From positions 2,025 to 66,024 of the forward strand of contig CAYNNN010000005.1 of assembly GCA_964398665.1 (NCBI GenBank): 64,000 nt of DNA, read 5' to 3'. Positions within the stretch are counted from its first letter, which is position 1. Every line of letters begins with the position of its first letter. The position numbers and the translations under genes were made by a program. The DNA is from an uncultured Gammaproteobacteria bacterium. Its GTDB lineage: Bacteria > Pseudomonadota > Gammaproteobacteria > CAYNNN01. Shown piece by piece: positions 19,566-56,190 of the stretch. Below the pieces are notes generated by a model. That model was not told where the DNA came from. It searched no databases and saw nothing but the letters and a program-made list of their open reading frames with translations.

Positions 19566-20360
19566 TCAGGGCACTGCGGGGGCGAGTAACTGAATCTCCC
19601 AGCCCTGCTGTTGCAGGCGCAGTTGTAAATCCAGGGCCGTAGCCCGATCCGGCAGCGGGCCAACCCGCAGGCGCCACAGCCCGGCCCCGGCAGTCAGGCG
19701 GGCTTGCCAGGGCGGCGGCAATTGCATCTGGAGTTGCGTCTGCAAGGCCGCAGCCCGACCACGGGCACCGAAGGCCCCGGCCTGCAAATACCAGCCGTCA
19801 TCTGCTGCCAGCATCGTGTCAGCGCGTTCCCCCTGCGGAGAGGCCAGCGGTACCACCCCGCTTTCCGGCACGGTCAGGGCCTGCACCTCGACAGCACCCG
19901 TCCCGGTGATGCCCAGCTTGGCGGCGGCCACATAGGACAGATCAATCAGGCGATCTGCGACAAACGGTCCCCGGTCATTGACCCGCACCACCACCGCCTT
20001 GCCGCTCGCCAGGTTGGTCACACGCACATAGGTCGGCAGGGGCAAGGATTTATGTGCAGCCGTCATGCCCAGCATGTCGTAGGGTTCGCCGCTGGAGGTG
20101 GGCTTGCCATGAAACGCCTTGCCATACCAGGAGGCAGTGCCGCGTTCGACATAACCGACGGCACTGGGCATGACTCGATAGGCTTTGCCCCAGACTACAT
20201 AATCCTTGTTGCCGTAACGGCTCAGGGGTTCTGCCTTGGGGACAGCATCGGGGATTGCGGCCAGGTCTATCGGATCACTGGGCGGGCCATCACGCCCGCC
20301 CGACTGCGGTCCGGCACAACCGGCCAGACACACGGCCAACAGGAGGCTAGTGCCCCGCAT
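19566..20360 (-). CDS. rlpA: Septal ring lytic transglycosylase RlpA (lipoprotein, DPBB plus SPOR)
   Basis: Lipobox LAGC, GTASWYG, TAAHKSLPLP, VRVNDRGPF, RLIDLSY, C-terminal LQAGAF SPOR domain. Confidence 0.93.
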   Translation of the reverse strand: MRGTSLLLAVCLAGCAGPQSGGRDGPPSDPIDLAAIPDAVPKAEPLSRYGNKDYVVWGKAYRVMPSAVGYVERGTASWYGKAFHGKPTSSGEPYDMLGMTAAHKSLPLPTYVRVTNLASGKAVVVRVNDRGPFVADRLIDLSYVAAAKLGITGTGAVEVQALTVPESGVVPLASPQGERADTMLAADDGWYLQAGAFGARGRAAALQTQLQMQLPPPWQARLTAGAGLWRLRVGPLPDRATALDLQLRLQQQGWEIQLLAPAVP

Positions 20361-23300
20361 ACTCCAGCGCCTGCAAGGCCACCGTCCCAATCTGGTAGCC
20401 CTGCTGTTGCGCCAGATTGCGGATGAAATCCACCTGCTGCTTGGTCATTTCTCCAAACGAGAAATGTTGCGCGTAACCCGATACGCCCAGCAGGGTGGTC
20501 TCGGCCACGCAACCATAAACATGATCCACCGGTAGCCGGGTACCCTGCAATTTCAGGCCCTGAGCACCCGGCAACCGGGCCAGTCCCCCCGAAAGAATCT
20601 GGATGTGCGGATAGGCGTCAAATACGCTGTTGGCCACGTCCTTGGGCGTGGCAATATCGCAGATCACCACCACGCGCCTGGACAGATGCTGGGGGTAGAT
20701 CACCGGCCGAGCCGAGTTGGTACACGATACGATCACCGGGCAATCGGCCAAGTCAGTCAACTGGTCGGAGAGCTGAACCCAGCGCGCCCCGCCCAGTTCG
20801 GATTCGACCTGGGCGCGCAGGAAGGCCCCGATGGCCTCGGGCGGCGTGGCCTGCTGCATGAGCCGGGCATATGTCTGGGTCGTCGCCAAGGCTGCTGCCA
20901 GCCCGGATACCGGACCGCCGCGCTGCAAGGCCACCCAGGCATCGGCATACAGGGTATCCGCCACTTCACGCAGACCCTCGTCCTGCGCATTGCGACCGAA
21001 CAACCGGATCAGCGGCGAGTATTCAGCCAGGACCCGCGCACAGATCGAGCCAATGTTACCCTTGGCACCCACAACGGCAATAGGTGTTTCAGCCAGGATC
21101 AGGCCCTGGGCCTGTGCTGCACTGAGCGCCCCTTCAATGCCCAATGCAGCGGTGTAGGCATTGCCGGAAGTGAGGGCCAGCCCCGTTTCCGCGACAGCGG
21201 TGCAATTGAGGGTGACGATGGAGGTGTAGCCGCCAAAGCCGACCACCTTGCAACCGTGCTTGTGCGCCAGTTGCACGGCCTCGTCGATCTTGTACAGCAG
21301 CAGCTCGCGCTCTTCGGTGCGCATCATGGCCTCAAACAGCGCCCCGGTCAGCGGCAGGCCGATGATGGACAGATGCACCTGCGCTCCCGTGGCGGTGGTA
21401 ATGCGCATCTGCTGGGCGATGGCAATTTTGGAATACGGGAATAACTGGCGCAACAAAGGTTCGCGCAGGGCTTCCGGCACTTCGGCAAAGGAAGGTTCCA
21501 GTTGCAGCAGGGCGTCCAGATCTTCCAGGTGTCCGATATGCGCCACCCGAGGTTCATCACCGGGGGTCGTGTCGGTGTTAGGCGGCTGGCGGTCGCGCCA
21601 ATCCTGCACCGGCTCGCCTGGGTCGGTCTCGGCACCCACGACATAGCGCAACAACCGCCCGGCATTGGCATGACGGAAGATTTGGCACACATCGGCAAAT
21701 GCCGCAATGACCCGCTCCATTTCAGCCTCGGTAATCAACGCCGAGGGCAGGAAACGAATGGTGTTGCGGGTTTTGGTTGGTGCGATGCGGATTTGCTTGA
21801 CATTGAGCAAATAACCTGCAATCAGCATGTTGACCATTTCCATGCCATGCTGGGCGATCAGGCGCAGCATGAACGAGGGCGAATGTTGCTGGGGCGCCAG
21901 CTCAACACCCAGCATCAGGCCGGCCCCGCGCACTTCACGGATCACATCGGGATAATCCACGGCCAGTTGCCGCAATTTACCCAGAAACAACTGGCCACTG
22001 CGGGCACAGGTGGCCAGGATGTCTTCTTCTTGCAACAATTCCAGGGTACGCAGCGCCATCAGACAGCCCAGACGGTCTTCGGCAAAGGTTGAGCCGTGCA
22101 TATAGCCAAAATCGTCCTGATAACGACGTTCGCTGACCATCATGGCACTGACTTTGGTCAAACCACCGCCCAGACTCTTGGAAAAGGTGTAGTAATCTCC
22201 CCGCAGGCCAGAGAGTTCCGCTGCCGTGAAGGTACCCGTCCGGCCCATGCCGCACTGGATTTCATCCACCACGATGGGAAAACCGTACTCGTCCGCCAAC
22301 TGGCGTGCCGCCTGTAAAAACTCCGGCTTGACCGGGTGCATCCCGCCCTCGCCCTGAATCGGCTCCAGAAACAGGGCAGCGACCGGGTACCAGGGCTTGG
22401 CAGTGAGCGTGACGGCCCCCGCAGCATCCAGGGCAAACAGATAGATGGTCTGGCGCTCCGCCTCAATGGCTGCCTGCAAGGCGCCTGGCTCATGTCGAAT
22501 CCAGCGGGTGCGCAAGCCCATCCAGTGGAAAGGATGGCGGAAATCCGGGGACGCGGTCATGCTCAGGGCGCCGGTGGTCATGCCGTGGAACGCATGGGTC
22601 AGGGCCAGAAACAGCGGTTCCTGAGCCAGCACCTGACCATTGTGCGCCACCACGGCCTGATAGACTGCGGCCAGATCGGCACAGACCACGCCCAGCAGGG
22701 CAGCGGCTTCGGTATACAAGGTCGGCTGCACGGCTACCTGCCCCTTGTGATACTGGTCCAGCATCAGGGCGGCGAGGTTGTCCAGGTATTTTTCCTGCTG
22801 CAAGCCCTTGTTGCGCAGTTCCAGCTTGGCATGTTTGACCGCTGCTTCGACGGCCTCGGTGCCCGTGCTGGCCAAAGTGGCCACAAAGTGCTGCCCGGTC
22901 GCCTGATGCAGGCGCTCCGACAAGGCCCGGCCCAACTTGCCAGCGGCAATATTATTGCTGTGCTGCGCATTGATCGGCACCCCTTCGGCCAACAGCATCT
23001 GCATGTGCTGCACCAGCTCCGGGTGATTGTGACCCAGAATGGTGGAACCATAACCACCAACCATATCGAGGATTTCAACCTCCTGTCCCTGGATTTCGTA
23101 GTACAGATAATTCCCCTGGGCACGGGTATAGTGCTTGTCGGCCCCAATCACGGCGATGCGTCCGGCAATACCCCGACGGGCATAATGGCCATACAGCGCG
23201 GTATCGGGCAGCAATGCGGCTGCATCCGCTGTTGGCAGCGTCACAGTGCCCAGCAACTGGCCGATGCGTTCGGCCAGTTGGGCAATGGTTGGAGTTTCAA

Positions 23301-26300
23301 ACAGGGCACGGATCGGCAGTTCCACACCCAACTTGTCGCGCAGCTCGACGATCAGCCGGACCGCCAATTGTGAATACCCCCCGATTTCAAAGAAGTTTTC
23401 ATCAATGCCGATGTGATCGTTTTTCAGGATGTGCTGCCAGATGGCCAGAATGCGCTGCTCCAGGACATTACGCGGTGCGGCCAGGGCCTGAGGCCGGGTG
23501 GTCGTCACCGCAGGCAGGGCACGCCGGTCCACCTTGCCGTTGGAGGACAACGGTAAATTTTCCAGCAGCATGTAGAACTTCGGCACCATGTAGGCGGGCA
23601 GGCGCGCTTCCAGGTAACTACGCAGCTGGGTCAGGGTGAACTGACTGACCTGCGGCCCGCTGGCCCGGCGCAGGTAATGCACCGAATCCTGCAAGGCAGC
23701 AGCATACTGCGGGCTATGGAACTGCACCCCGCTGCGTTTGCCGCTGCGCCACAGCAGCTGGCTTTCCAGGCGGATAATCTCGCTCCCAATGGGCAGACGT
23801 ACACTGAGCGCAAACCGCTGGCCGGGTACCAGGTCGGCGGGTAAATCCAGTAGCTGTGCCCCGGCAGGCGCCAGACTGAGCAGCAAAGCTTCCGCTTCGC
23901 CCCCATCCCAACGCACCCGGCAGGGTTCCTGAGCGGGCAGACTCACGCTGTCCGGGTCAGCCAGCGGTCCACCCATGACCACACCGGCCTCGCTTTCCAT
24001 GACATAGGCCAGACTACGGCGCAGGTCGGTCAGCGCTGCTTCACCCTCCAGCTGCACGCACAACTGTTTTTGGGCCACCCAAAGAATTTCACCGTGATAT
24101 TCCCCCTGGGCCTCCAGCCCCGGCAAGTGCAGGCGCAGGCGCACATATTGGCGCGAATGCCACTCGCACAATTGCGTAGTCAGGGTCAGCGTCTGGGCCG
24201 AGAGCGCAGTCGCCTGCGCGGCAAACCAGGCCCCGGCATGGTCTTCCAGTTCACAGGCCACGGCGATTTCAGCCCGGGCCAGGTCCAGCAGGGAGACCAC
24301 GTAAGCCACCAGCTGTTTTTCGCCTGCCGCTTCGGTAACGGAAACCACGCATTCCTTGACCGCCGGATGCTGGGACAACACCGCCTCGATTTCGCCCAGT
24401 TCAATCCGGTAGCCCTGGATTTTGACCTGAAAATCTTCCCGGCCCAAAAATTCGATATTGCCGTCGGGCCAATAGCGGCCCAAATCTCCGGTGCGATATA
24501 GACGTTCCCCAGTATGGGGATTGCAGATGAAGCGGGCAGCGGTTTTCTCCGGATCGCGCCAGTAGCCCAGCGCCACCCCTACCCCGCCAATGTACAACTC
24601 ACCGGGCACCCAGGTCGGACAGGGCAAATACTGGCTATCCAGCACGTGGAAAGTCTGATTCACCATCGGGCGGCCATAAGGAATGCTGACCCAGTGCGGC
24701 TCCACCCGGGTTACATGATAGGCGATCGACCAGATCGAGGCTTCGGTGGCCCCACCCAAGCTGAAGAATTGCACCTGCGGAGCCAGCGTCCAGAGCGTGT
24801 CAGGCAGCTTCAGCGGAATCCAGTCGCCACTGAGCATCACCAGCCGCAACGAAGGGGGCAGGCTCAGGCGATGACCCTGGACATACTCCAGCAGGATCTT
24901 CATCAGGGCCGGGGCGGTGTTCCAGACGGTCACCTGATGCCGGACGGCCAGTTCCAGCCAATGGGCCGGATCACGCTGCCGCTGCGGGTCGGGCAGTATC
25001 AAGGCCCCGCCTGCGCCCAGGAGTCCGAAAATGTCGTACACCGACAGGTCAAAGGACAGCGAGGACAGGGCCAGCACCCGGTCGCTGTCCTGGACCCGGA
25101 ACCGGGTATTGACATCCACCACCGTGTTGATGGCACCTTGATGGTCGATCATCACGCCTTTGGGCGTGCCGGTCGAACCCGAGGTGAAGATGGTATAGGC
25201 CAGCGCATCCAGCCGCTGAACCGGCTCCAGCTCATCCCCCAGCTCTGCGGCAAACGGGTGAGCGTCCAGGGCAAAGACCTGCACCGTCTCGGGCCAGGTC
25301 AGCCGGGAAACCACCCAGCTCTGGCTCAGGACAAAGCGGGTATCGGTATGGGCCAGCAGATAATCGATCCGGGTCTGAGGCAGGGCCGGATCGATGGGTA
25401 AATAAGCCCCGCCGGCTTGCAGAATGCCCAGGACGGCGACAATCTGCTCCCAACCTTTTTCCGTGACCACGGCCACCAGTTCACCCGGCACCACCCCGCG
25501 CGCCCGCAAGGCCCGCCCAATCCGGTTGGTCTCCTGCCACAACTCCCCGTAACACCAGGTGCGATCGGCGGCAATCACGGCAATCTGGCTCGGGCGCAGT
25601 CTCGCCTGCAAGCCGACGCCTTCCTGCAACCGCAGGCCCGGTAGCGGCGCAGCCGTGGCATTGACCTGCGCCCGCTGCTCCAGTTGAGCAAGCGGTGTCA
25701 GTTGTGGCAGGGACTGCCAGCGGGCTTCATCCTGAGCCAGCCGGTGCAGGTAAGCCTGATAGGCGGCAAACATTTCATCCAGCAAACCCGCCGGGAACAA
25801 GGCTTCCACCGCATCCCAGCTATAAACCAGGTCAGCGCCGTCTTCCAGCACCTGATGATCCAGCCAGACTTGCGGGGTCTGGGACACGCTGTACACCCGC
25901 TGGCCCAGCCAGTCCACCGCTGAATCTGCCCCGGTCTGTAACCCCAGGGCACTGGTGAACACTACCGGCAGACTGACGTTCTGACGGCCCTCCAGGCGCG
26001 CCCATTCTTGCAGGATGCTCAGGCCATTGACCTGGCGATGCGCCAAATCCTGCCACAACTGCCGCTGTACCCGCTCGGCCCGTTCTTCAAAACTGGCCGC
26101 ATGACGCAAATCCACCGCCAGCGGCAGCAGGGCGGTAAAATCACCGACCAGTTGCTCCACTTCGGGATGGGCCGGAATCCGGTTGAATGTGGTCAGATTC
26201 AGGGTAAAGTGCGGGCGTTTGCTCCAGGTCGCCAGCACACAGGCAAACGCCGTGGCCAGCAACACCGAGGGCGTGAGATTGCCCTGCTGCCCACGCTGTT

Positions 26301-29300
26301 TCAGCGCCTGCCACAGCGGCGCGGCCAAGCGGCCCTGGCGTCGGACAAAGTGAGGCTTGCCTACGGTGGCCGGTGGACGCGCCAGCGGCAGTTCCGGCGC
26401 AGGTGGCAATTCTGCCAGCCGGGCGCGCCAGTATGCCAGCGCCGTCTGGTAGTCTGCCCGGCCCTGCCAGCTCCGCTCGGCCAGCACATAGTCACGAAAG
26501 CTCAGGCCCAGCGGCGCCAGCGCCTGGGTCGGGTTGGCATATAGCTCGCCCCACTGGCGAAACAGCAGTAACAAGCTCCAGACATCTGCAATCAGCAGGT
26601 CGATGCTGACATGCACCCGGGTCAAATCCTCGGGCAGGATGCTGGCACGAATTTCAAACAGCGGCCACAAGGCGGTGTCATAAACCTGATGCGACATCCG
26701 CGTCCGCACCGCTTCCAGGGCGGTGCTGCGTACCGCCCGATCGGCGTGGCGCAGATCGGCCACTGCTATCGCGTAAGGCGCAACTTCCGGCAGCATGCGC
26801 TGCTGGCCGTGGGCGTCCACCACCAGGCGCAAGGCCCCGTGGTGTTGAATCAGACGCTGCCAGGCCGCTTCCAGACGTGCGACATCAAGACCGGCGTGCT
26901 CGAATTCCGCATAAAAATGGCAGGCGACTCCACCCAATTCCAGGCTTTCGACCCGCCCCAGCCAGTAAGCGGTCTGGATTTCGTTGAGCGGAAACGGTTG
27001 CGCCTGCTGCGCCCGATCAGGCTGCAAGGTCAGTGCCTGACGCTCGACACCACTGGCCGCCAGGGCCTGCGCGGCCAACTCCCCTATCGTGGCAGCATTG
27101 CCCAGCAAACTCACCGGCAAGGTCCGGCCCAGATGCTGTTCCAAATCGCCCAGCAGCCGCAGGGCCGTCACTGAATCCACCCCCAGCGCCCCCAGCACGC
27201 TGCTGGCCTGCACCGTTGCAACCGGTACGTGCAGGCGCTCTGCGACTCGGCCCACAAGCCAGGCAGTGAGCTGGCCTGCGGCGGTCTCCAGTGCAGCCTG
27301 CACCGGTTCTGCGTCAGGTCCGGCCGACGTGGCCGGGACATCCCAGGCCCAGGCCAGATCCAACTGGCCCTGAAGATAGTCCTGCCTGGCACGTTGCCGT
27401 TGCACCTTGCCACTGGAAGTCTTGGGCAGGCCGCCAAAATTCAGCAGGACCAGTTGCTGGAGCTGCAATTCATGTTGCTCGGCCACTGCCCGGCGTACCG
27501 CCGTCAGGAGTTCTTCCGGATGTGGGGCCAGGGCGCTGCTGCTATCGCCGACCGCACGAAACTGACGCTTTTTCAAATCGCGCTGATAACGCCGATCCAC
27601 CTCGGCGACCATGATCAGTTGCGGTTCTCCGGCCGCACTGTCCACGGCAAAAGCAATGCTGTTGCCCACACCAATGGGCAGATAGCCACTGCTGCCCACC
27701 AATTCGCGCAGGGTCTCGTCCAGCGTCCATTCCAGATCCTGGGGATAATGATTGCGGCCCCGGATGATCAGCACATCTTTCAGGCGCCCGGTGATGAACA
27801 GCTCCCCGTCATGGATGAAACCCAGATCCCCGGTGCGCATGAACGGCCCTTCCCCGGTATCGCTCAAGTGCGCCCGGAACGTGCGTTCGGTCTCATCCTC
27901 ACGGCCCCAGTAGCCCTGAGCGACATGGCGGCCCTGCACCCAGATTTCCCCCACCCGGTTGCGCGGGGTGCGGGTCCGTTCCTCCGGATCGGCCAGGACA
28001 ACCTGCTCAAACCCCAAGGCACAGCCATTGCCCACAAAAGTCTGGCTCCCGCTGCTCAGGGTCGTCAGCATGACCTTGCCGGCCCGCAAGCCATCAGCCA
28101 CCACACCCTGATGCACTGGCCCCGCGCCCGGTTTACCCCCCGTCACCAGCAAGGTCGCTTCGGCCAGCCCATAGCTGGGATAGAACGCTTCCCGGCTAAA
28201 ACCCAAAGGCGCGTAAGTCTTGGCAAAGCGATCCAGACTCTTGGGATTGACCGGCTCGGCACCGGTGAGCAAAAAGCGCCAGGTCGACAAGTCCAGGCCC
28301 GCCTGGGCAGCCGGGTCTATTTCATCCACACACAGATCAAAGGCAAAATTGGGGGCGATAGAGGCCGTGGCCCGAAACCGGCTCATGGCCGTCAGCCAGC
28401 GCAGCGGTTTTTGCAAAAAGGCAGCCGGGGGCATGAAGATACAGCGCATGCCCCGGTACAATGGGAATAGCAACAGGCCAATCAGGCCCATATCGTGAAA
28501 CAGGGGCAGCCAGCCGCACCCGACATCCTGTTCGGTCAGGCCAAAACCGTCCTCCATCATCCGCAGGTTGGTCAGCAGATTGGTATGACTGACCATCACG
28601 CCCTTGGGCGCCCCGGTTGACCCCGAGGTGTATTGCAGCAAGGCTAGGTCATCACCTTGCAGCCTGGGCATGGCCCAGCGCTCGGCATCCGTCAGGACAA
28701 CCTGATCCGTCACCAGCCAGTGCAGGGCCTTGAGCGCCGGCACTTCATCCAGCATCGGCTCCAGGGTTTGTTGAATGCCACGGGTAGTCAACACGGCCGC
28801 CGGCCGGGCATCCTGAATGATGGCACTGAGGCGGCGCAGATTGCGGTTCCGCCGGGGTGGATAGGCCGGAACGGCGATCACGCCGGCATATAGACAGCCA
28901 AAGAACGCACTGATGAACTCCAGTCCGGAGGGGTAAAACAGCAGGGCACGTTCCCCTGCCAGACCCAGACCCTGCAATTGCGCAGCGATGGCGCGGGCCT
29001 GCTTGTCCAGCAATGCATAATCAATCGGCTGGCCATCCCCCTCACCGTCGGGCAGGAACCGGTAGGCTTCCGCTTCGGGACGCAATTTGGCCCGAGTGCG
29101 CAACACATCCACCAGGGTCTCGTAAGCCAGGCCCTTGTTGCCATACTCAAACAGCATCAGACGGACTTTGGGCAGGAAGCGTTCCTGCGGCGGATACACC
29201 GGCTTGTCGATAAAGGCATCCACCCGCGCCTGGGTGATGGCATTCTTGACCAGTTCCACATCCTGGCCATAAGCCGTCACCAACACCCGTTTGGTGCGCG

Positions 29301-29547: not shown

Positions 29548-29578
29548 GTAAGCACTCCCCCTAATACTAATAATGAAT

Positions 29579-46413: not shown

Positions 46414-47700
46414 TCAGGGCGTGCTGAATGACCAGGCGCTCAGGTCGCCGGACTCAAAGCCATCACCAAAAAGGGTGGGCACTGTAACAAAGTCGGCCGC
46501 AATGGCCGTGGTGCCGGTGCCACTGTCACCCTCGCGCAGGGTACGCGCATTGTCACGCTGGCTGGCAATACCGGTGGCCTGACCGTTATAGGTGATGCTG
46601 GGGTTGGAAAAATGGGCAACGCGGGTACAGCCCTGGGTACATTGGCTGGAATAGGACATCACGGTGCGAAAACTGCCATTGACATAATGGCCAAATGACC
46701 AGGGATAGGAAGCACTGCCCGCCGCCGGACCGTTGGCCGGGTCGTGTTCCAGGCCGAGATTATGGCCATGTTCATGCGCATAGGTAAGGTTGCCCACCGC
46801 ACAACCGCGCGCGGTCACCTGAAAGGCGCTGGCAGCAAAACTGGTGCTGGGATTACGCATCACGTAGCCCACGCCGCAAAAGCCACCCCCATCCTCCACC
46901 AGCAGACTGACCAGATCGGCCCCGACATTGGCGCGCAGGGTAGCCACGGTACCGTCATTGGCTACCCAGGTCAGGTCGGTGCTGGTATTGCCGCTGTCGT
47001 CATGGTCGGCCAGCCCGGTGTACACCAGATTGAACTGGGCGGGGACGTTACTGTTGCCAAAGGCAGTGTTGGCATTGTCCACCGCTGCCTGGGCAGTGGC
47101 TTCGATATTGGCCACCCCACCGGCCGCATCCCGCGCCTGCGGGGTATACAGCACCATGACATCAATCAGGGCATTGGCCGCCCCGACCCGGCTGGTTCCG
47201 GAAGGGGTCATGGCAGAGGCGGCATGATCAGGGTCAGGGGCTTCCAGGGCGCCGCCACAGGTGGGAAATTGGGCCTGATCCAGTTGCCGCAACTGGTAGC
47301 CGCCGGTAACCGGAAGCAGCTCATAGACATGCTTCGGGGCCAGCAGCAGCCCGTACAGCACACCTTTCTTGTAGGTCAGCGTCACCTGCCCGGTCTGGTC
47401 CTGGGCGGCGGGGTACTGACCACGCCAGACATAATCCCCACCACTGCGGGCCTGGACTGTTTGCCGCAAGGCGCTCAGGACAGTGCCATCGGGCAGGGGC
47501 AGCTCGATCCGGGCGCTGTTGCCGGCCGCCAGCGCCGTAGCCGCATCCACCTGTAGGCTATGGGCGCTGACGACGGCCGGGGCCAGTTGGGGATTGAGAT
47601 CGGCTGCCCCGACGATGTGATACAACGCATCGGCCCCGGCGGGGCGCAACAACCCGCTGATCAAGCCAAAACCGATAGCACCAGGACCCAGGCGTCGCAT
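46414..47700 (-). CDS. Secreted M12-type (reprolysin-like) metzincin with C-terminal FxDGFE tail
   Basis: HEHGHNLGLEHD zinc motif, RTVMSY Met-turn, prodomain-like N-terminus, ends LFGDGFESGDLSAWSFSTP. Start uncertain. Confidence 0.85.
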   Translation of the reverse strand: MRRLGPGAIGFGLISGLLRPAGADALYHIVGAADLNPQLAPAVVSAHSLQVDAATALAAGNSARIELPLPDGTVLSALRQTVQARSGGDYVWRGQYPAAQDQTGQVTLTYKKGVLYGLLLAPKHVYELLPVTGGYQLRQLDQAQFPTCGGALEAPDPDHAASAMTPSGTSRVGAANALIDVMVLYTPQARDAAGGVANIEATAQAAVDNANTAFGNSNVPAQFNLVYTGLADHDDSGNTSTDLTWVANDGTVATLRANVGADLVSLLVEDGGGFCGVGYVMRNPSTSFAASAFQVTARGCAVGNLTYAHEHGHNLGLEHDPANGPAAGSASYPWSFGHYVNGSFRTVMSYSSQCTQGCTRVAHFSNPSITYNGQATGIASQRDNARTLREGDSGTGTTAIAADFVTVPTLFGDGFESGDLSAWSFSTP

Positions 47701-47764
47701 ATTCAATGATTCCACGATGGCAGAAGGGAAACTGTAACGTGAACGGCGCCAGGCGGCAAGCCAC

Positions 47765-49936
47765 TTACGGGTATAGCTCTCGCAGCGGGCTGGGCAGGTT
47801 GATGCCATAGCCTTGGGCATAATCAATACGCATGGTCTGCAATTTCAGGATGATGTCGGTATTCTCCGCATACTCGGCGATGGTCTTTAGCCCCATCAGA
47901 TGCCCTATCTGGTTGATGGCCTCGACCATGGCACAATCCACATTGTCATCCAGGATGTCGCGCACGAAACTGCCGTCAATTTTCAGGTAATCTACCGGCA
48001 GGTTGCGCAGATAGCTGAATGAGGACAATCCAATGCCGAAATCGTCCAGCGCAAAGCTACATCCTAGGGCGCGCAGTTGCTGCATGAACAGGCTGGCGCG
48101 GGCCAGATTGCCGATGGCGGCCGTTTCGGTAATCTCGAAACACCAGCGGGCGCCGGATAACCCAGCGTCCCGCAATTGATCCTGAATGAACTCCAGCATC
48201 CCCTCGTCACTGATGGAAGTGCCGGAAAGATTTACCGCACACAGCGGCGGCACCTGACCCAGTTGGAGCAATCGGCGCTGAAACTGGGCGACCTGGCGCA
48301 CCACCCAGCGATCAATCTGGGGCATGAGCCGGTAGCGTTCCGCCGCAGGAATGAAGCTGTCCGGCGGCACCATCCGCCCGTGGTCATCCCGCAGACGCAA
48401 CAGGATTTCATGGTGATGAGGCCGGACCCCCTTTGGCAGGGCGAGATCAAGAATGGACTGATAATAAAGTTCAAATTCGTTGCGCTCCAGCGCACCGGAA
48501 ATGCGGGAGGCCCAGTCCATTTCCCGGCGCCGGCGCAAGCTTTCATCGCTGCTTTCCTGATAGACATGAACCCGGTTCCCGGTTTCCTTGGCGGTATAGC
48601 AGGCCACATCAGCAGCGCTCATGAGTTCGGAGAGGCTGCTGCTATGGGGATTGATCAGCACAAAACCAATGCTGACGGCGACTTCAAAGCGCCGTTCCTT
48701 CCAAGTAAAGCGAAATTCCCGCACCGCGCTGCGCAGGTTTTCCGCCACCAGCAGGCCCTGCTCCTGCGGGCAATGATCCAGTAACACACCGAACTCATCG
48801 CCGCCCAGGCGGGCGACCAGGTCACTGTGCCGCACTTTGGCCTGAAACAGGGCGCTGAGCTGACAGAGCAGGCGGTCGCCCGCGATATGACCGCAGGTGT
48901 CATTGACAATTTTGAAATAATCCAGATCCAGATACAACAGACTATGGGTTTTGCCATCACGTTGCGCGCCGCCCAGGGCCAATTCTACCCGGCGTTCAAA
49001 CTCACGCCGGTTGGCCAGGCCCGTGAGCGGGTCATGGGTCGCCTGCCAGGCCAGCCGGTTGGCCATATCGCGGGCCAGAGTGACATCGTGGAACGCAAAC
49101 ACCGCACCGGTGATTTGGTGATGCGCCGTGTGGATGGGCGCTGCCGAACCTTCGATGGCAAGTCGGTCACCATCCTGGCGGACCAGGGTCAACTGATGCA
49201 CCCGGCGCAGCAGGCGACGTTCCCGCAATACCTGAGTCAGCGGGCATTCCAGTGGCTGACCGGAGCTTTCATGGAGTAAATGAAACGCTTGATCCACCGA
49301 CTGACCCAGCAGTTCGGCGGCGGTATAGCCCAGCATCTTCTCGGCGGCCGGGTTCAGATAACTGATACGGCCTTCCAGGTCGGCACTCACAATGCCCTCG
49401 GCGATGGCTTCCAGGGTAATGCGGGATTTTTCCTTTTCCTCAAACAGCGCACGCTCGGCCTGATAGGAACGCAAGGCCGTAACCAGTGTGGAAAACAGCT
49501 TCTGGGCCGTCAGTTCGGTCTTGGCCTTGTAGTCGTTGATGTCGTACTGGATGATGACCTGCCGTTCCGGGGCCTGGCCGGGCTGCCCGGTACGCAGAAT
49601 GATGCGGACAAAGTTATTTTTCAACTCGTTGCGGATGAATTCCACCAGACGCAGGCCCGCATCGTCACGATCCATGACCACGTCCAGCAGGGCTACGGCC
49701 AAATCGGGATGGGCCCGCAACAAGGTTTGTGTCTCGGCCATCGAGTGCGCACTGAGCAAGTCCAGCCCGCGCCCGGCGAATTGAAAGCCATGCAGGGCCA
49801 GCCGGGTGACGTGATGGACATCCACCTCATCGTCTGCGATCAGAACCTTCCAGGGGCTGAGCGGGGCAGTGGCCGTGGGTGCTGGCGCCTCTTCATCGGC
49901 AAACAGGTTTTCTTCGTCGGGGTTATCAGGCGTCAT
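47765..49936 (-). CDS. REC-PAS-GGDEF-EAL c-di-GMP enzyme
   Basis: REC LIADDE, LLDVVM, LRTG, KAK; PAS NPAAEKMLGY; RHSD I-site and GGDEF; EILLRL, EITE, DDFGIG, KIDGSFV, AEY, QGY. Confidence 0.92.
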   Translation of the reverse strand: MTPDNPDEENLFADEEAPAPTATAPLSPWKVLIADDEVDVHHVTRLALHGFQFAGRGLDLLSAHSMAETQTLLRAHPDLAVALLDVVMDRDDAGLRLVEFIRNELKNNFVRIILRTGQPGQAPERQVIIQYDINDYKAKTELTAQKLFSTLVTALRSYQAERALFEEKEKSRITLEAIAEGIVSADLEGRISYLNPAAEKMLGYTAAELLGQSVDQAFHLLHESSGQPLECPLTQVLRERRLLRRVHQLTLVRQDGDRLAIEGSAAPIHTAHHQITGAVFAFHDVTLARDMANRLAWQATHDPLTGLANRREFERRVELALGGAQRDGKTHSLLYLDLDYFKIVNDTCGHIAGDRLLCQLSALFQAKVRHSDLVARLGGDEFGVLLDHCPQEQGLLVAENLRSAVREFRFTWKERRFEVAVSIGFVLINPHSSSLSELMSAADVACYTAKETGNRVHVYQESSDESLRRRREMDWASRISGALERNEFELYYQSILDLALPKGVRPHHHEILLRLRDDHGRMVPPDSFIPAAERYRLMPQIDRWVVRQVAQFQRRLLQLGQVPPLCAVNLSGTSISDEGMLEFIQDQLRDAGLSGARWCFEITETAAIGNLARASLFMQQLRALGCSFALDDFGIGLSSFSYLRNLPVDYLKIDGSFVRDILDDNVDCAMVEAINQIGHLMGLKTIAEYAENTDIILKLQTMRIDYAQGYGINLPSPLRELYP

Positions 49937-52900
49937 GGCGCACCGCGTGCAAGGGTAAGGGAATCTTCAGCGTAAAGTGGGTGCCCAGGCCAGGCTGGCT
50001 GCGGCAGGCAATTTCGCCGCCCAGCGTCCGGGTGACCAGATTATAGGTGATATGCAGCCCCAGGCCGCTACCCCCCGTGCCACGGCGGGTGGTGAAGAAT
50101 GGCTCGTAGATGCGTTTGAGATGGGCGTCCGCAATCCCTTTGCCGTTATCACTCACCTGCAACACCAGCCGTTCTTCGGGACGACGGCGCACCAGTTCAC
50201 GCGGGCCGGTACCGGGTTGCGGCACAGGATAGACATTGCGCACCCAATCCTCTTCAAAGCCCACTTCAATCTGGATCTGGCGCGGGGGCGGCTGGTCTTC
50301 AAAACCGTGCAACACGGCATTGGAAATTAAATTGGTGAGGATTTGGGCAAATACCCCCGGATAACTGGTGATGTACAGGGGTTCCGGGCAAGTGAGCATG
50401 ACCTCAACCTGATTTTTCCGCAGCAGCGGACTCAAGCTGAGCAGAATTTCTTCCAGATAGGGCTTGAGACCAAATTCCCGCTGCGCCTCGCTGGACTGAT
50501 CCACGGCCACCTGCTTGAAACTATGCACCAGATTGGCCGCCCGCTGCATATTGTGTTGCAACATCTGGAAACCTTCCTCGGCCAGTTTCAGGAATTCCTC
50601 CAGCTCGGAGCGCTTCATTTTCCCGGCATTGAAGCTGCCCGTCAGGGTCAGAATGCGCTCATGCAGAAAGCTGGCGGTAGTCACGGCATTACCCAGCGGG
50701 GTATTGATCTCGTGGGCCACACCGGCCACCAGCCCCCCCAGGGAAGCCATTTTCTCGGACTGAACCAGGCGCTCCTGCGTTTCTTTCAACAACCGCAGGG
50801 CATTGCTCACCTCCTCCTTTTCCTTGCGCAAGGCCAGGGTACGTTCGGAAACCTGCAAGTTCAGAAAATTGCTGGCATAGCCGAGCGTAAAGGGCAGATC
50901 CACGGCCCAGCGCAGCAGCAAAGGCAGCAAAAAGAGCGCGGTAAAGACGCTGGTCAGAATCGCCACGCTGGTATACATCGCCAGACCCCAGATATTCGCC
51001 AGATCCGTGAGAAACAGCGGCAACAGGCTCAACAGCAGGACCACCACGGCCAGGACCACGCCGGAACCGGTGGTGCTCAGGGTTTGCTTCAACGCTTCAT
51101 TCAGGTCTTCGCTACGTTCGTATTCAACCCGAAAGCGGGCAGCCAGATAGATGCAGTAATCCACACCCAGCCCCATGGCGATGCTGAGCGTGACCAGATT
51201 GCCAAAATGCAGGTTGCCGCCCCAGTTGCCAACACTGCTGAAATAACCGCCCAGGCCGTATTGGGTAATCAACGTGATGCTGACCATCAGCATGATCAGG
51301 GTTGCCATGAGCAGAGAACGAAACATCCAGGTGATCACACCCCCGACCAGCAAGGCGGTCAACAAGGGATTGAGCAGCCAGTTTTCGGCGCTGATTTCGC
51401 GGCTGGCTTCCGTGGTACCGGCAAACCCGCCGATGCCGACTTCAGGCCGCAGTTGGGGCAAACCCAGCGCCACCGGGCGAAACTGGGGGTCGTCCCGGTG
51501 GAGCTTGATATAGGTCCGGATCCGCTCCAGGGTCGCATGGACGGACTTCGGGTCCAGGGTTTTGATATAGCCGATGATCTGGGCATTGCCATAGTCATAG
51601 TCCACTACCGAACTGAAATCACCCGAGTCCGCACCCATGGCGTAGGTAAAAATATATTGCTCGACCAGCTCAGGATCGTCCGGCAGGCGCCAATAGGCCG
51701 GATCGTTGTTGTGCAGGCTCTGATTCAGCAGGCGCAGATACTGGCTGAATGACACCGTATACCCGACATTGGGGTCCTGATGCAGAAAACTTTCCAATTC
51801 ATCAATTGCTTGTAGCACTTCAAGCCGCTTGAATGCGCCGGGTTCCCTGCCCAGAAGCGGGATGTTGAACGACACCACGCCCGGCATCATCCGGTTGAGC
51901 TGATTCAAGTCCTGAATCAGCGGACTGCTGGGCTTGAAGGCCGCCTCCGGGTAATGAATGCCCAATTCCAGGCGCGGGATGAACAGCGCTGAAACGCCAA
52001 CCAAACCCAGGCTCAAACCGACCGGCAGCCACTTCCAGGGCCCGGTCAGCAACTTCAACACACCCTGCCCCAGACGGGCCTCCCAGGTGCGTACCGTGTG
52101 ATCTGCGGGTAACGGTTTGTGGGACACCCACATGACCAGCAGCAGGGGCAGCAGGGTGGTGGTGGTCAACAACAGGCTGAACATGCCGAACATGCCGAAG
52201 TAGGCGTAATCCCGGTAAAAGGAAATGTCCACCCAGGCGAGACTAAAGAAGCCTACCACATCGGTCAGGATGGCCATGCTGGCCGGGAACAGGGTATGCC
52301 GGATCGCCCGTTGCGCAGCCAGTTGCGGGGGCTGGGTATGCAGCTCATCACCATAACGGCGCATGATCTGCACGGCATGACCAATGCCGATGGCAAAGAT
52401 CAGCACCGGAGTCAGCACCATCATGGTGGTCAGCTCAAAGCGGGTCAGTCCCATCAGGCCCAGGGTCCAGAGGATGCTGATGCTGACTGTCAGCACCGGC
52501 AACAAGGCCAGCCGCCAGGAACGGGATTCGGCATACAACACGGCCAGGACCAGCAGCAGGGAGAGCAGGAACCAGTGCCAATGCTGGGCCAGATTGACCA
52601 GCATTGAAGCCAGAAAATAAGGTTCTCCGGAAACATAGACCTGCAAGCGATCATCGGCACGCGTCTGGGCCAGCAAGGCCTGAAAGGCCAGCACCCAGGT
52701 ATAATACTGGTTCTTGATGCTGCTATCGAAGTCGGCAATGATGAAAGTGGCTTTACGGTCTTCTGAAAGCAGCATGGGCCGCAGGATGGGGTTGGTTTCC
52801 AGCCCCGTACGCAACACCGTCAAAGCTGCTTCGGCTGCCACCGGATCATCGGGCAGACCCTCGCGGGGCAGCAGGCGGCGGATATCCAGACCATCCTCGG

Positions 52901-53282
52901 TGCCCCGGATATAGCGCACCTTCTTGGCGGCGATGGAAATGAAATTCTCTGGCCGGGCGCCGGGCAGGGCCGCCAGGTGCTGATGGAGCTGGCGCACCGC
53001 ATTGATGAACCAGGGCTGATAGATATCCCCTTCACGCACCGCCAGGCCAATGACCACCAGGTTACCCATGCCAAAAGTCTGTTCTACATAATTGTTGGTC
53101 TGCACATGGGGGTTGCGTAGCGGGAGCAGGGAATCCGGATCGTTGCGGATGATGATCCGGGGAATCTGGGTCAGCGCCAGCCCGGTCAGGATGATGACCA
53201 GCCCCAGCAACCAGAACCGTCCCCGCACCGCAGCGGCCGCGTAGCGTTCTGGCCAGGCCGGGGTCGGCGCACTAGAAGGCAT
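49926..53282 (-). CDS. MMPL/RND-family membrane protein fused to a C-terminal histidine kinase
   Basis: About 790 aa MMPL-like (TM motifs AIGIGHAVQ, GLGVDY), then QVSERT coiled coil, SEKMASLG, VAHEINTPLG, NLISNA, DNGKG, EPFFTT, GSGLGL; one open frame. Confidence 0.9.
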   Translation of the reverse strand: MPSSAPTPAWPERYAAAAVRGRFWLLGLVIILTGLALTQIPRIIIRNDPDSLLPLRNPHVQTNNYVEQTFGMGNLVVIGLAVREGDIYQPWFINAVRQLHQHLAALPGARPENFISIAAKKVRYIRGTEDGLDIRRLLPREGLPDDPVAAEAALTVLRTGLETNPILRPMLLSEDRKATFIIADFDSSIKNQYYTWVLAFQALLAQTRADDRLQVYVSGEPYFLASMLVNLAQHWHWFLLSLLLVLAVLYAESRSWRLALLPVLTVSISILWTLGLMGLTRFELTTMMVLTPVLIFAIGIGHAVQIMRRYGDELHTQPPQLAAQRAIRHTLFPASMAILTDVVGFFSLAWVDISFYRDYAYFGMFGMFSLLLTTTTLLPLLLVMWVSHKPLPADHTVRTWEARLGQGVLKLLTGPWKWLPVGLSLGLVGVSALFIPRLELGIHYPEAAFKPSSPLIQDLNQLNRMMPGVVSFNIPLLGREPGAFKRLEVLQAIDELESFLHQDPNVGYTVSFSQYLRLLNQSLHNNDPAYWRLPDDPELVEQYIFTYAMGADSGDFSSVVDYDYGNAQIIGYIKTLDPKSVHATLERIRTYIKLHRDDPQFRPVALGLPQLRPEVGIGGFAGTTEASREISAENWLLNPLLTALLVGGVITWMFRSLLMATLIMLMVSITLITQYGLGGYFSSVGNWGGNLHFGNLVTLSIAMGLGVDYCIYLAARFRVEYERSEDLNEALKQTLSTTGSGVVLAVVVLLLSLLPLFLTDLANIWGLAMYTSVAILTSVFTALFLLPLLLRWAVDLPFTLGYASNFLNLQVSERTLALRKEKEEVSNALRLLKETQERLVQSEKMASLGGLVAGVAHEINTPLGNAVTTASFLHERILTLTGSFNAGKMKRSELEEFLKLAEEGFQMLQHNMQRAANLVHSFKQVAVDQSSEAQREFGLKPYLEEILLSLSPLLRKNQVEVMLTCPEPLYITSYPGVFAQILTNLISNAVLHGFEDQPPPRQIQIEVGFEEDWVRNVYPVPQPGTGPRELVRRRPEERLVLQVSDNGKGIADAHLKRIYEPFFTTRRGTGGSGLGLHITYNLVTRTLGGEIACRSQPGLGTHFTLKIPLPLHAVRHDA

Positions 53283-55197
53283 AACGCACCCCCAGGGTCA
53301 AGCCGGAACCGCGCCCGGCAAATTGACCCAGCAGACTGTCCTCGGTGCCAAAATATAGATTACTTTCCAGGGTATAGGTCAACTGGTCGCTGCTATCATA
53401 ACTGAGCTGGAACTGATCCCAGTAGCCGCCATCGGCATCAGCCAGCAACAGATTGCTCAGGCGCAGGCGTTCATTCAGAGCGCTGGTGGCCAGATACAGG
53501 CTGAAAAAATTCTGATACCGGGCGCCGGCCCGTAACCCGTTGCTCAGATTCACGGTTGCAAAATCGGCGCTGACCCGGCGATAAGCCTCCCCCGTCACCG
53601 GATTGAGCACGGTAGCCCCCAGGCTGTCCTGGGCGGCGCTGGGGGCATCCACATAGTCCAGGTTGATGAACTGGATAAACTGCACGCTGGTAAACAGGTT
53701 GCGCAGAAATGTCCTGTCCAGGCCAATGACATAACGCAAATAATCTGCCGGTTCCTGACGCAGGCCCGCCGCCAGGTCGCCCACTGCCGCGTAACCAAAA
53801 TCCACCACCGGCTGGCGGTCATCCAGGTTCAGCAGTACCTCACCCCGCAGCACGACCGGCCCCCAGCGCGTTTCCAGTTGGCTGTCGAAACTGCCCCCCA
53901 GGCTGTGAACCCGGTGCAATCGCTCGGTAAATACCAGACTGAGCGCATCCCCTGCGGGCGTCTGGTCTGAGGCATTGCTGGGATGAGCCGGGCTACCCGA
54001 GTAAATCTGCCCATCCGCGCCCTGAAAGCCGGTGATGGACAGCGGCGCACCGCTGGCATTGGGCTGGCGGGCATAAACCGGCGTCACGGGCTGACCGCCG
54101 GCCTCGTAGTGCAGGCCGACCTGAGGGTCGTTACTCCAATGATAATAATAATTCAGGGAATAACGGGTGGGGCCGGATTTACCCTTCCAGCGCAGACCCA
54201 GATTGCTGGCTTCCAGGGTCAGGGAATTGGGGTAACGGCGCTGATAACGGCTGGTCAGCCCGGCAAAGTTCAGATTGGTCTCAAAGGTAGCCAGGGCCGT
54301 TATTTCAAAGAGAGAGTCCGTCCGGCCATCTCCAGCGCTGAGCAAGGCCGCTTCATAGGCAGCGCTGGGCAGTTTGAGCTGACCGATGGCCTGGGTAATG
54401 GCCGGATTCAACCCGACGCCCGGCATCAGCACCCCGGTGTTGAACACAGTCTGGGCGGCCCACTGGCCGGGGGCAGGCTGACCCAATTGCTGGCTCAGAC
54501 CGCTGGCCAGCGTACCCAGACGGCCCGCCAGCGGCGCAAACCCGTAAACCGGGCCGGTGATGGCATCTATTCCCTTGAATACAAATGGATGACCTACATC
54601 ACCCCCGGCATCCAGCCCCGGATATTGGTTAGCCTTGACATCCGGGACCCAGACCCATTGCAGCGCCTGTTCCTCACCCAGACGCCACTCGCCTTTGGCC
54701 ATCCAGAGCGTGACCCGAAAATCTTCAAAGGTGTTTTGATAGAATTCCCGAAAATCACTGGGATTAATAATATCCAGCAGCTTGATCCCGTCTGCCGTGC
54801 CCCAGACGACCTGCTGTTTGCCCAGGCGCAGGCTGAAGTTCTCCTGCGTCCAGTCCAGATAGGCTTCCCGCAATGGATCGGCGGTCGTGCCCCGGCGCGG
54901 ATAGGCGTAACGCTGCGCCAGCGCTTGGTGGGGACATACCCGCTTGCTCAGTGGGTCGTCATCCTGACAATAATCCCAGGTCGCATCGTAGTAGAGCCGG
55001 GGTTGCAGATGCAGTTGCAACTGTTCGTTGAAGGTATAGTTGGCAAACAGGTCCAGGGACCACTCGCTGCGGCTGAGGTCTCGGCCCGCTTGCCAGCGCA
55101 TGGTGGTCTCGTTGCGGGCCAGACCCGTCAGCGCCCATTCGCCCGCATGACCATCCGCAGCAACCAGCAGGGCACAGCTCAATATCAGCAGTCGCAT
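53272..55197 (-). CDS. DUF1302-like outer-membrane beta-barrel
   Basis: Signal peptide, LREAYLDW, LGKQQVVWGTADG, DIINPSD, terminal VRYAF. Confidence 0.78.
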   Translation of the reverse strand: MRLLILSCALLVAADGHAGEWALTGLARNETTMRWQAGRDLSRSEWSLDLFANYTFNEQLQLHLQPRLYYDATWDYCQDDDPLSKRVCPHQALAQRYAYPRRGTTADPLREAYLDWTQENFSLRLGKQQVVWGTADGIKLLDIINPSDFREFYQNTFEDFRVTLWMAKGEWRLGEEQALQWVWVPDVKANQYPGLDAGGDVGHPFVFKGIDAITGPVYGFAPLAGRLGTLASGLSQQLGQPAPGQWAAQTVFNTGVLMPGVGLNPAITQAIGQLKLPSAAYEAALLSAGDGRTDSLFEITALATFETNLNFAGLTSRYQRRYPNSLTLEASNLGLRWKGKSGPTRYSLNYYYHWSNDPQVGLHYEAGGQPVTPVYARQPNASGAPLSITGFQGADGQIYSGSPAHPSNASDQTPAGDALSLVFTERLHRVHSLGGSFDSQLETRWGPVVLRGEVLLNLDDRQPVVDFGYAAVGDLAAGLRQEPADYLRYVIGLDRTFLRNLFTSVQFIQFINLDYVDAPSAAQDSLGATVLNPVTGEAYRRVSADFATVNLSNGLRAGARYQNFFSLYLATSALNERLRLSNLLLADADGGYWDQFQLSYDSSDQLTYTLESNLYFGTEDSLLGQFAGRGSGLTLGVRYAF

Positions 55198-55206
55198 CCG
55201 GCCCCC

Positions 55207-56190
55207 CTAACGCTCGGTCCGTTCCAGATGGGCGATACTCCAGGTATCGTCCGGTAAATCGGCATTCCAGGCACTGGTCTCGGGTGGAATGACCGCCATG
55301 CTTTCATGGCCACTGGCCAGCGTTTTGCCATACCACATCACCCAGTACACAGCGCGGAGGTCAGCCACATCCGCACTGCCGGGATGCTGGCGCATCGGGC
55401 GCCAATCCCGGTCGATGATCTTGACCAGCTGGCCGTTTTTGTAGCTCAGGGTGCGATAATCGGCAAAGCTTTCCTGATCCACCCAGGAAATCCGGTAGTC
55501 GTACCAATAATCCTTGAAGGTGGTCGTACTCTTGATGACATAACAGGGCCGGGGTGCAAAATCCTCGTGTGCCTGCGGTTGATAGGCCATGAAAACCTGC
55601 TGTTGCTCCGGCGGAATGCTGATGACATGCAGACGCCCGCCCCCTTCCTGCGCCTGCGCAAACGGCTCGACCCGCAGTAGTTCATGGGTCTCATGCTCCG
55701 GGCGGCGCAAGGATACATCATCAAAGTTCCAGTCGGTGCCCGCATAAGCATCATCATGATTAGGCTGGGTAAATCGCCTTGGCTTGCGTAGGGCGGGCAA
55801 CCAGACGACCAGCTCCTGGCTACGGCTGCTGTCCAGAAAATCCGAGATTAAAAATGCCGTCCCGTTGACGGCTGCCGGATAGCGGAAGATGGCGATATCC
55901 TGCGCCAACAACGGGGAATTTTCCGGAAACGCATTGCGCAGGAAACGCTCCAGGGTACGAAACCGGTATTTGCCTTCGCCGTTACGATAGACCAGATAGG
56001 GAATGCTGGCGCCCTGTTTGCGGATGGCATAATTGCGCACGGCCCGGAAGTGGTTGACATACCAGACCTGGGCCATGATGTTGGCTGGACTGGGCGCAGC
56101 GTCAGGATAGGCCACATCCACCGCAGGCGCCCCGTTGGCAACCCCGCTGCCCAGCCACAGCAACAGGGTCATCATGAGAATGGCTTGCAT
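55207..56190 (-). CDS. LolA-like / DUF1329-type periplasmic lipid-carrier-like protein
   Basis: Signal peptide, GTAFL, WLPALRKPRRF, GTDWNFDDV, YKNGQLVK. Confidence 0.78.
   Translation of the reverse strand: MQAILMMTLLLWLGSGVANGAPAVDVAYPDAAPSPANIMAQVWYVNHFRAVRNYAIRKQGASIPYLVYRNGEGKYRFRTLERFLRNAFPENSPLLAQDIAIFRYPAAVNGTAFLISDFLDSSRSQELVVWLPALRKPRRFTQPNHDDAYAGTDWNFDDVSLRRPEHETHELLRVEPFAQAQEGGGRLHVISIPPEQQQVFMAYQPQAHEDFAPRPCYVIKSTTTFKDYWYDYRISWVDQESFADYRTLSYKNGQLVKIIDRDWRPMRQHPGSADVADLRAVYWVMWYGKTLASGHESMAVIPPETSAWNADLPDDTWSIAHLERTER

Follow-up and report, generated by a model that had tools for sequence, protein, structure and literature searches.

Two gene modules with signalling fusions

We analysed 64,000 nucleotides of DNA from an uncultured, activated-sludge Gammaproteobacteria bacterium of the GTDB lineage CAYNNN01 (assembly GCA_964398665.1, contig CAYNNN010000005.1, positions 2,025 to 66,024 of the forward strand). 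This stretch, hereafter the window, carries two gene modules in which pumps of the RND (resistance-nodulation-division) superfamily are fused to two-component signalling domains. Module A is an eight-gene operon (20347-39418) that encodes a nonribosomal peptide synthetase (NRPS) and a pump, both bearing receiver (REC) domains. Module B consists of four genes (47765-56190), one of which encodes a pump fused to a histidine kinase. Both modules lie on the minus strand, as do all large open reading frames (ORFs) between 20347 and 56241 save for a 5-kb block inside the gap between the modules, and successive genes of the module A operon overlap by 4 nt or are separated by 12-93 nt. Domains were called by Pfam and NCBIfam scans of the window proteins. 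These scans reproduced the domain list that a first-pass annotation of the same DNA had given for both modules, and agree with it that the synthetase and both MMPL proteins are each fused to a signalling domain. Its six REC domains are all intact, with acidic pair, acceptor Asp, Thr and Lys retained in each, and its three kinases correspond to a soluble REC-kinase in module A, an MMPL-kinase in module B and a small membrane kinase in the gap (42095-42997). The genes that it placed in module A were right, but the extent that it gave (20347-38753) omitted a REC-LuxR gene at 38750-39418, which overlaps the neighbouring thioesterase gene by 4 nt.

The fusions are genuine and not assembly errors, as shown by their recurrence in relatives and in independently obtained contigs. 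Logan contigs of two independent studies of activated sludge are identical to the window over positions 37000-56900, and in each study the MMPL-kinase ORF lies on a single contig. None of the RNA runs searched for the region contains it. We think it fairly probable that A and B are independent of each other, and that each is a widespread envelope-transport trio (HAE3/MMPL pump, LolA-like carrier, outer-membrane barrel) to which signalling domains have been added.

Module A encodes a predicted fatty-acyl-thiazoline assembly line

The last gene of the operon (20347-29547) encodes a megasynthase of 3066 aa. Pfam and NCBIfam matches, matches to PDB structures and motifs give it the order REC, fatty acyl-AMP ligase (FAAL), acyl carrier protein (ACP), heterocyclization domain (Cy), cysteine-type adenylation (A) domain interrupted by a PilZ-derived insert, peptidyl carrier protein (PCP), class III aminotransferase and a thioester reductase resembling acyl-ACP reductase (AAR) and PigE. 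The REC domain spans residues 7-119 and the FAAL, to which FadD32-type models match at E about 1e-130, residues 143-730; the ACP lies near residue 790. The condensation-family domain (851-1192) has no HHxxxDG motif and carries DLLIAD, a DxxxxD motif, at residue 983. The A domain follows at 1314-1771, its C-terminal lobe split by an insert of about 220 residues, and is succeeded by the PCP (2031-2095) and the aminotransferase (2140-2619). The C-terminal domain resembles cyanobacterial AAR and the N-terminal domain of PigE (TIGR04058, E 6e-18; PigE model, E 5e-27), with PigE (4PPM) and AAR (6JZQ) as the best PDB matches. FDLSVYD, WNTAP and GGATEASIWS motifs are also present. Both the aminotransferase lysine that binds pyridoxal phosphate (PLP; FSKSLGGG) and the reductase cysteine (GCVAET) are intact, and both are conserved in the synthetase of locus L170. 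A gene for an RlpA-like protein with DPBB and SPOR domains (19566-20390) overlaps the 3' end of the synthetase ORF, and Fe-S and hydrogenase-type subunits are encoded past it; we therefore place the end of module A at 20347.

The Cy-A part is closest among solved structures to FmoA3 (6LTA, best overall), BmdB (7LY7) and PchE (7EMY). BmdB, PchE and HMWP2 represent cysteine-specific Cy-A-PCP modules, with which the window module shares the DxxxxD motif and the cysteine code (E 1e-163 to 1e-206). It differs from BmdB, PchE and HMWP2 in being primed by a FAAL-ACP in cis, in being preceded by a receiver domain and in having an interrupted A domain. The consensus for cysteine specificity is DLYNLSLIWK, and the specificity residues of the window A domain, read by eye as DLYNMSLIWK, agree with it at nine of ten positions.

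From the Cy motif, the cysteine code and the intact aminotransferase and reductase, we predict that the product is a 2-alkyl-thiazoline with an aminomethyl group, namely a 2-alkyl-thiazoline-4-methylamine. This upholds the earlier proposal of an acyl-thiazoline-type lipid and refines it to an amine. The FAAL would load a fatty acid onto the ACP, and the Cy domain would join the fatty acyl group to cysteine and close the thiazoline. The AAR/PigE-like domain would then release the thioester as an aldehyde, which the fused aminotransferase would turn into the amine. Reductive release followed by transamination is established chemistry in myxochelin B biosynthesis and in PigE. In those systems (the R domain of MxcG with MxcL, and PigE, 4PPM, in the biosynthesis of the prodigiosin precursor 2-methyl-3-amyl-pyrrole, MAP) a thioester is likewise reduced to an aldehyde, from which a PLP enzyme then makes an amine, and the PigE/AAR type of reductase has the same conserved GC(V/M)AET cysteine. 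Unlike them, the window synthetase has both activities in cis at the end of an assembly line, where they would act on a fatty-acyl-thiazoline, and its order of aminotransferase then reductase is the reverse of that in PigE.

A PilZ-derived insert interrupts the adenylation domain

Between core motifs a8 and a9 of the A domain lies a tandem insert of PilZ descent (23623-24255, minus strand; residues ~1753-1974), recognised by its homology to canonical tandem-PilZ inserts that occupy the same site in P0243, P0244, P0247, P0249-P0251 and L172. The homology to strong PilZ inserts reaches E 1e-12. The PF07238 (PilZ) match at residues 1871-1946 scores 25.4 bits with the insert excised and 20.5 bits in the whole protein, the cut-off being 22.5. 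When 5.8 billion proteins were searched with the insert, one other protein was returned, P0243, a conventional multimodular NRPS in which two strong PilZ domains occupy the same a8-a9 site. HMMER searches of 1.84 billion cluster representatives gave 11 matches. The seven that were checked are all A domains, or fragments of them, from NRPSs or hybrids of polyketide synthase (PKS) and NRPS, split by PilZ at a8-a9; six have a tandem pair and one (P0248) a single unit. Homologs of the window insert occur in no fewer than eight further NRPS or PKS-NRPS clusters. Interrupted A domains of the a8-a9 type, such as TioS A-M-A (PDB 5WMM), have the same insertion site, in the mobile A_sub lobe, but there the inserts are tailoring enzymes and here they are receptor domains.

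We compared the insert with its family at the positions that bind c-di-GMP. In unit 1 the consensus of the family is D[LIV]SxxG, and in unit 2 it is RRxxxR with [DN][IL]SxxG; the corresponding residues of the window insert are ALSAQT and RRSLAY...SLAPAG, and neither unit keeps the RxxxR and [D/N]xSxxG binding motifs. Canonical RRxxxR and [DN][IL]SxxG motifs are kept in P0243, P0247, P0249, P0251 and L172. Within the family of A-type synthetases, the Chromatiaceae ortholog L172 keeps unit 2 (RRTNFR and DISRDG), the insert of L174 is degenerate, and L170, L173 and L177 have none. Because the motifs are degenerate in both units, canonical binding of c-di-GMP by the window insert is unlikely, and the feedback of c-di-GMP on the synthetase that the first-pass annotation had drawn through it is doubtful. 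The insert is probably the decayed remnant of a c-di-GMP gate, and the window synthetase a decayed member of a class of PilZ-interrupted A domains that is apparently undescribed; literature searches on PilZ within A domains found nothing relevant. The best candidate for c-di-GMP gating of a synthetase is L172:2087-11125.

The module A transport genes and their relatives

The first gene of the operon encodes a response regulator of the REC-LuxR/FixJ type (38750-39418, minus strand, like all genes of the operon; Response_reg and GerE matches). A 122-aa ORF rich in Gly, Ala and Arg at 39415-39783 has no Pfam match and was rejected as a gene. After the regulator come a type II thioesterase (TE-II; 38013-38753; PF00975, E 7e-44), whose gene overlaps the next by 4 nt, and an Sfp-type phosphopantetheinyl transferase (PPTase; 37324-38016; PF22624 and PF01648). 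The pump of 1121 aa (33865-37230) joins two Response_reg domains to an HAE3/MMPL RND transporter (MMPL, Patched-SSD and TIGR00921 matches). Its presumptive partners are a LolA-like lipoprotein of the TP_0789-like/DUF1329 type (32419-33825; PF17131, E 2e-63; lipobox LVAC), which has an Ig-like N-terminal domain and a linker rich in Pro, Ala and Lys, and a barrel protein of 428 aa (31094-32380). The latter has a signal peptide and a C-terminal YHF but no Pfam match, including to DUF1302. An AlphaFold2 model built from a 50-sequence alignment (pLDDT 89.8) shows an 18-strand outer-membrane beta-barrel, and its top Foldseek match is the alginate porin AlgE (E 6e-10). A soluble REC-histidine kinase of 500 aa (29579-31081; Response_reg and HATPase_c, E 4.5e-18; H-box SHRLKNP), with neither a sensor domain nor a transmembrane (TM) segment, lies between the barrel and synthetase genes.

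Cassettes of this kind are known. AmeABCD of Castellaniella defragrans is an HAE3-type RND cassette with DUF1302 and DUF1329/LolA-like partners (PMC6394551), and a related cassette, Sama_1588-1591 of Shewanella amazonensis, is known from cofitness data (bioRxiv 10.1101/072470); such cassettes are believed to carry hydrophobic compounds, or a component of the envelope, outward (PMC6394551, bioRxiv 10.1101/072470). As in modules A and B, they combine an HAE3/MMPL pump of the inner membrane with a LolA-fold protein in the periplasm and a barrel in the outer membrane. The barrel of module B is of the same DUF1302 type, whereas that of module A is AlgE-like with 18 strands, and neither paper describes fusions like those of the window pumps, to two receivers (A) or a histidine kinase (B). 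Pfam scans of all genes from 16806 to 57671 found no COG4447/Ycf48-like beta-propeller of the AmeC kind. The two window pumps match PF03176 at E 5e-29 and 2e-40 and TIGR00921 at E 5e-41 and 1e-31.

The REC-MMPL fusion recurs in five clusters (P0123, P0124, P0125, P0128 and P0129), in two of which, P0124 and P0125, the acidic pocket of REC2 is degenerate. We also searched GTDB representatives with an alignment of REC-REC-MMPL proteins. Among the matches listed, 80 loci, the pumps are all unfused and none adjoins an NRPS; a homolog of the module A LolA-like protein follows the pump in 70 of the 80, and in 57 the barrel comes after it as well. These loci belong to Nitrospirota, Nitrospinota, Desulfobacterota, Gammaproteobacteria, Myxococcota and other groups. 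Elsewhere, pumps of the module A subfamily are fused to cyclic-nucleotide-binding and rhodanese domains (P0192, P0215 and P0231, about 1140 aa), which argues that this pump family gained cytoplasmic regulatory domains several times. A cluster of 35 members (P0095, 1045 aa) has the DUF1329/LolA-like and MMPL parts on one polypeptide, a Rosetta-stone hint of contact between carrier and pump. At L005:10001-23423, a large PKS accompanied by a trans-acting FabD/NMO gene adjoins a REC-REC-MMPL protein with 47% identity, so that a receiver-fused pump is paired there with a lipid synthase of a second kind.

The whole of module A is conserved in locus L004, where the genes stand in the same order with 73-80% identity; the REC-FAAL start of the synthetase is present (75% identity) and the REC-kinase ortholog occupies the same position (77%). 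The window and L004 hold the most signalling-decorated versions of the module. A scan of GTDB representatives with the aminotransferase-reductase didomain as a single-protein query gave no match; repeated with an alignment that contained L170, it gave 14 loci. The L170 synthetase aligns to window residues 144-1752 and 1975-3054, lacking both the REC domain and the insert, which sets the limits of the two in the window protein and indicates that these are lineage-specific regulatory additions. The genes that follow it encode a TE-II, an MMPL protein with one REC domain, a LolA-like protein, a barrel and an Hpt-containing hybrid kinase. In L172, a Chromatiaceae metagenome-assembled genome (MAG), a synthetase without REC stands beside an unfused MMPL gene and an acyl-CoA-dehydrogenase-like gene, and in L174, a Sulfuricurvum MAG, the synthetase is accompanied by TE-II, PPTase, LolA-like, barrel and MMPL genes. 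Two Deltaproteobacteria MAGs (L173 and L177) have a PKS module in place of the FAAL before the Cy-A-PCP-aminotransferase-reductase end. An MMPL pump adjoins the synthetase in the looser clusters L170, L172, L174 and L177, and in all the two are found side by side in at least six loci. Chiefly on account of this association, we agree with the first-pass annotation that module A probably exports its lipid: the pump, the LolA-like lipoprotein and the AlgE-like barrel would carry the product out from the inner membrane.

Domain content, conservation of the fusions, synteny and the integrity of motifs are what we observe, and from them we infer the chemistry, the direction of transport, the phosphotransfer partners and the signalling logic of both modules. 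For module A, the candidate phospho-acceptors are the synthetase (one REC), the pump (two RECs), the LuxR-type regulator and the soluble REC-kinase. Because these are all phospho-acceptors, a phosphorelay would gate production, export and transcription together.

Module B joins an RND pump to a histidine kinase

Module B begins with a periplasmic LolA-like protein that has a type I signal peptide from an ATG at 56190 (55207-56190; minus strand throughout the module; PF17131, E 2e-17), followed by a DUF1302 outer-membrane barrel (53272-55197; PF06980, E 9e-13). The third gene (49926-53282) encodes a protein of 1118 aa in which Pfam and NCBIfam recognise an MMPL/HAE3-type RND transporter fused to a complete histidine kinase, and the fourth (47765-49936) a REC-PAS-GGDEF-EAL protein (Pfam) that is the probable cognate regulator of the MMPL-kinase. 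The last two junctions are overlaps of 11 nt. The GGDEF-EAL protein keeps the GGDEF motif, the RxxD I-site and the EIL and DDFG motifs. A gene for a secreted reprolysin-like (M12B) metalloprotease (46414-47826), whose true start is probably near 47703, before the signal peptide, lies directly downstream on the same strand, and RAMP-superfamily genes of the type III CRISPR-like kind (56487-60126) begin 250 nt past the module.

An AlphaFold2 model of the MMPL-kinase (pLDDT 74.6) has 12 TM helices and two periplasmic domains, and TM12 (762-803) continues through a low-confidence helical linker into the DHp (844-930) and CA domains of the kinase. About 15 clusters of fused homologs were found, with 50-55% identity. 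In 15 of these homologs the catalytic residues of the kinase (H857, N988, D1045/G1047 and G1071/G1073) are invariant. The residues of a putative proton relay (T340-D341 in TM4 and D708-Y709 in TM10) are invariant in the same 15 and in 37 unfused pumps, which argues that the fused proteins probably still transport. Unfused relatives are common: in 80 GTDB-representative loci of module B-type pumps, a homolog of the module B LolA-like protein lies upstream in 58 and a DUF1302 gene in 59, and two of the 80 pumps (L008 and L009) are fused to a kinase. No separate kinase gene was found beside the unfused pumps of this type; the kinase domain thus appears to have been gained rather than split off. 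The 80 loci belong almost entirely to sulfur oxidisers, so the cargo of module B may be tied to that lifestyle, although sampling may favour relatives of the query. The lineages with the trio include Chromatiaceae, Sedimenticola, Thiodiazotropha, Thiosymbion, Sulfurimonas, Sulfurovum and Magnetococcales.

GGDEF-EAL orthologs follow the MMPL-kinase gene in L003 (44% identity) and L009 (58%), so that the pairing with a REC-PAS-GGDEF-EAL protein is seen in three of eight contexts. The L009 contig also has a PPTase gene 9 kb from the MMPL-kinase; as a possible carrier-protein link it was dropped, since HtpG and Usp genes intervene. Given the overlapping genes and the recurrent pairing, module B most likely signals to c-di-GMP as a flux or occupancy sensor, which bears out the earlier proposal that it sets c-di-GMP. 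The module would be a still-functional RND pump for hydrophobic cargo, whose transport or substrate-bound state passes via the helix that continues TM12 into the fused kinase; the kinase would phosphorylate the REC-PAS-GGDEF-EAL protein encoded by the adjacent gene and thereby set c-di-GMP.

Transporters that report to a histidine kinase are familiar from SSS-family CbrA/CrbS and from the flux-sensing BceAB-BceS system, and transporter-derived sensors include the Amt-histidine kinase Ks-Amt5 (PMC5764959). The MMPL-kinase resembles these in that a transporter would report its substrate or transport state to a kinase; it differs in being a 12-TM RND/MMPL lipid pump with a carrier and a barrel, and in having a c-di-GMP enzyme as its output. 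Full-text literature searches found no paper on an RND-kinase fusion. Since Ks-Amt5 shows that transporter-derived pure sensors exist, the module B MMPL protein could be a receptor that does not transport, and, as the decayed REC2 pockets of P0124 and P0125 might suggest, the fused receivers of module A could be inert relics without a gating role. We consider either version very unlikely. The proton-relay residues and the catalytic motifs of the kinase are conserved as described, carrier and barrel genes are kept beside the MMPL-kinase in the window and in L001, and all six window RECs retain every phospho-acceptor residue.

Relationship between the two modules

The first-pass annotation had joined the modules into a single sender-receiver circuit, in which module B receives the lipid exported by module A, in the manner of Dispatched and Patched, sets c-di-GMP, which may feed back on the synthetase through the PilZ-like insert. 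In its favour, the modules are 9 kb apart on the same strand, signalling domains sit on the synthetase and on both pumps, the insert is of PilZ descent with canonical motifs in the L172 ortholog, and the module A kinase has no sensor of its own. The 9-kb gap is, however, filled by housekeeping genes on both strands. It holds argH, a CbpA/DnaJ-type chaperone (DnaJ and DnaJ_C), pdxB, a GlcF-like Fe-S protein and the reprolysin-like protease, along with the small membrane histidine kinase (42095-42997, plus strand; HisKA and HATPase_c), whose homologs pair with LuxR-type regulators in unrelated loci.

We assessed co-occurrence through contig contexts and four pattern scans of GTDB representatives. 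None of the seven other MMPL-kinase contexts (L001, L002, L003, L008, L009, L169 and short ones) has a synthetase within 10 kb, and no MMPL-kinase was found in the other A-type clusters, which carry their own kinases. In the GTDB species representatives, a fused MMPL-kinase occurs in two genomes and an A-type synthetase in eight, with no genome in common. Searching 5.8 billion proteins turned up no B ortholog in the closest A-bearing relative: the best non-self match to the MMPL-kinase was only 55% identical, although a MAG with a 76%-identical module A is present in the database. Nor was an A-type synthetase found near the unfused module B trio in any of its loci; given this, and how common the trio is among sulfur oxidisers, its cargo is probably a common one. 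The binding motifs of the window insert are degenerate in both units, and import of a lipid by module B is mechanistically unlikely for an RND pump. In these contig contexts and pattern scans, which include incomplete MAGs, A and B do not co-occur beyond the window, the result that the first-pass annotation had itself named as speaking against its circuit. Nothing that we found links the modules into an integrated sender-receiver system, and we regard that reading as highly improbable.

Eukaryotic Dispatched and Patched are lipid-handling members of the RND superfamily. The window pumps share with them weak matches to sterol-sensing-domain and Patched-SSD models (E 4e-7 to 3e-8 in the module A pump and 8e-6 to 4e-7 in the MMPL-kinase), but the two pumps fall into different HAE3/MMPL subfamilies, are about 21% identical and give no sign of a shared ligand. 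A stronger version of the idea, that the MMPL-kinase is a lipid-flux transceptor, the first directly signalling RND pump, which converts lipid traffic into c-di-GMP on cue from the thiazoline-amine of module A as an analogue of Dispatched and Patched, would have to be regarded as a long shot.

Several points weigh against the reading of two independent modules. The matches of both pumps to the NCBIfam HAE3 model (TIGR00921) lie under its curated cut-offs, the cysteine code was read by eye against the consensus, and five of the eight MMPL-kinase contexts have no adjacent response regulator. The co-occurrence tests relied on short peptide patterns, incomplete MAGs and short contigs. Finally, the REC-kinase of module A has no sensor, so an outside kinase must feed its relay, and the MMPL-kinase 10 kb away is a possible input. 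This last point leads to a further alternative, in which the modules are cross-wired without a shared ligand: the MMPL-kinase or the 42095-42997 kinase would feed the module A receivers, and the status of an envelope lipid sensed by module B would switch module A. Module A has five RECs and only the one sensor-less kinase, two more kinases lie within 14 kb, and the pairing of small-kinase homologs with LuxR-type regulators elsewhere would fit. Cross-wiring is without support from covariation or synteny, however, the MMPL-kinase has its own overlapping regulator gene, and other A-type clusters bring their own kinases; we judge it unlikely. The reading of two independent modules remains the one that we prefer.

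Implications

The first-pass annotation had called the architecture undescribed. This appears to hold for the parts, a REC-gated NRPS with a REC-REC-RND pump and an RND-kinase leading to c-di-GMP, and not for an integrated circuit, which is unsupported; the two are apparently undescribed, separate signalling variants of known transport and NRPS systems. Literature searches on REC-FAAL fusions found nothing relevant. Natural-product regulation is usually regarded as transcriptional. Should the fused receivers be functional, module A would be a case of two-component, post-translational control that acts directly on both a nonribosomal assembly line and the exporter dedicated to it. The 2-alkyl-thiazoline-4-methylamine predicted as its product is small, and its structure can be tested. 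The PilZ insert, canonical in the Chromatiaceae ortholog, decayed here and absent in others, provides a natural comparison set for c-di-GMP gating of A domains. The RND-kinase family numbers about 15 lineages and is paired three times with a c-di-GMP enzyme; it would place lipid pumps among the few transporter-derived sensors and offers a tractable route to the cargo of a very widespread trio of pump, carrier and barrel.

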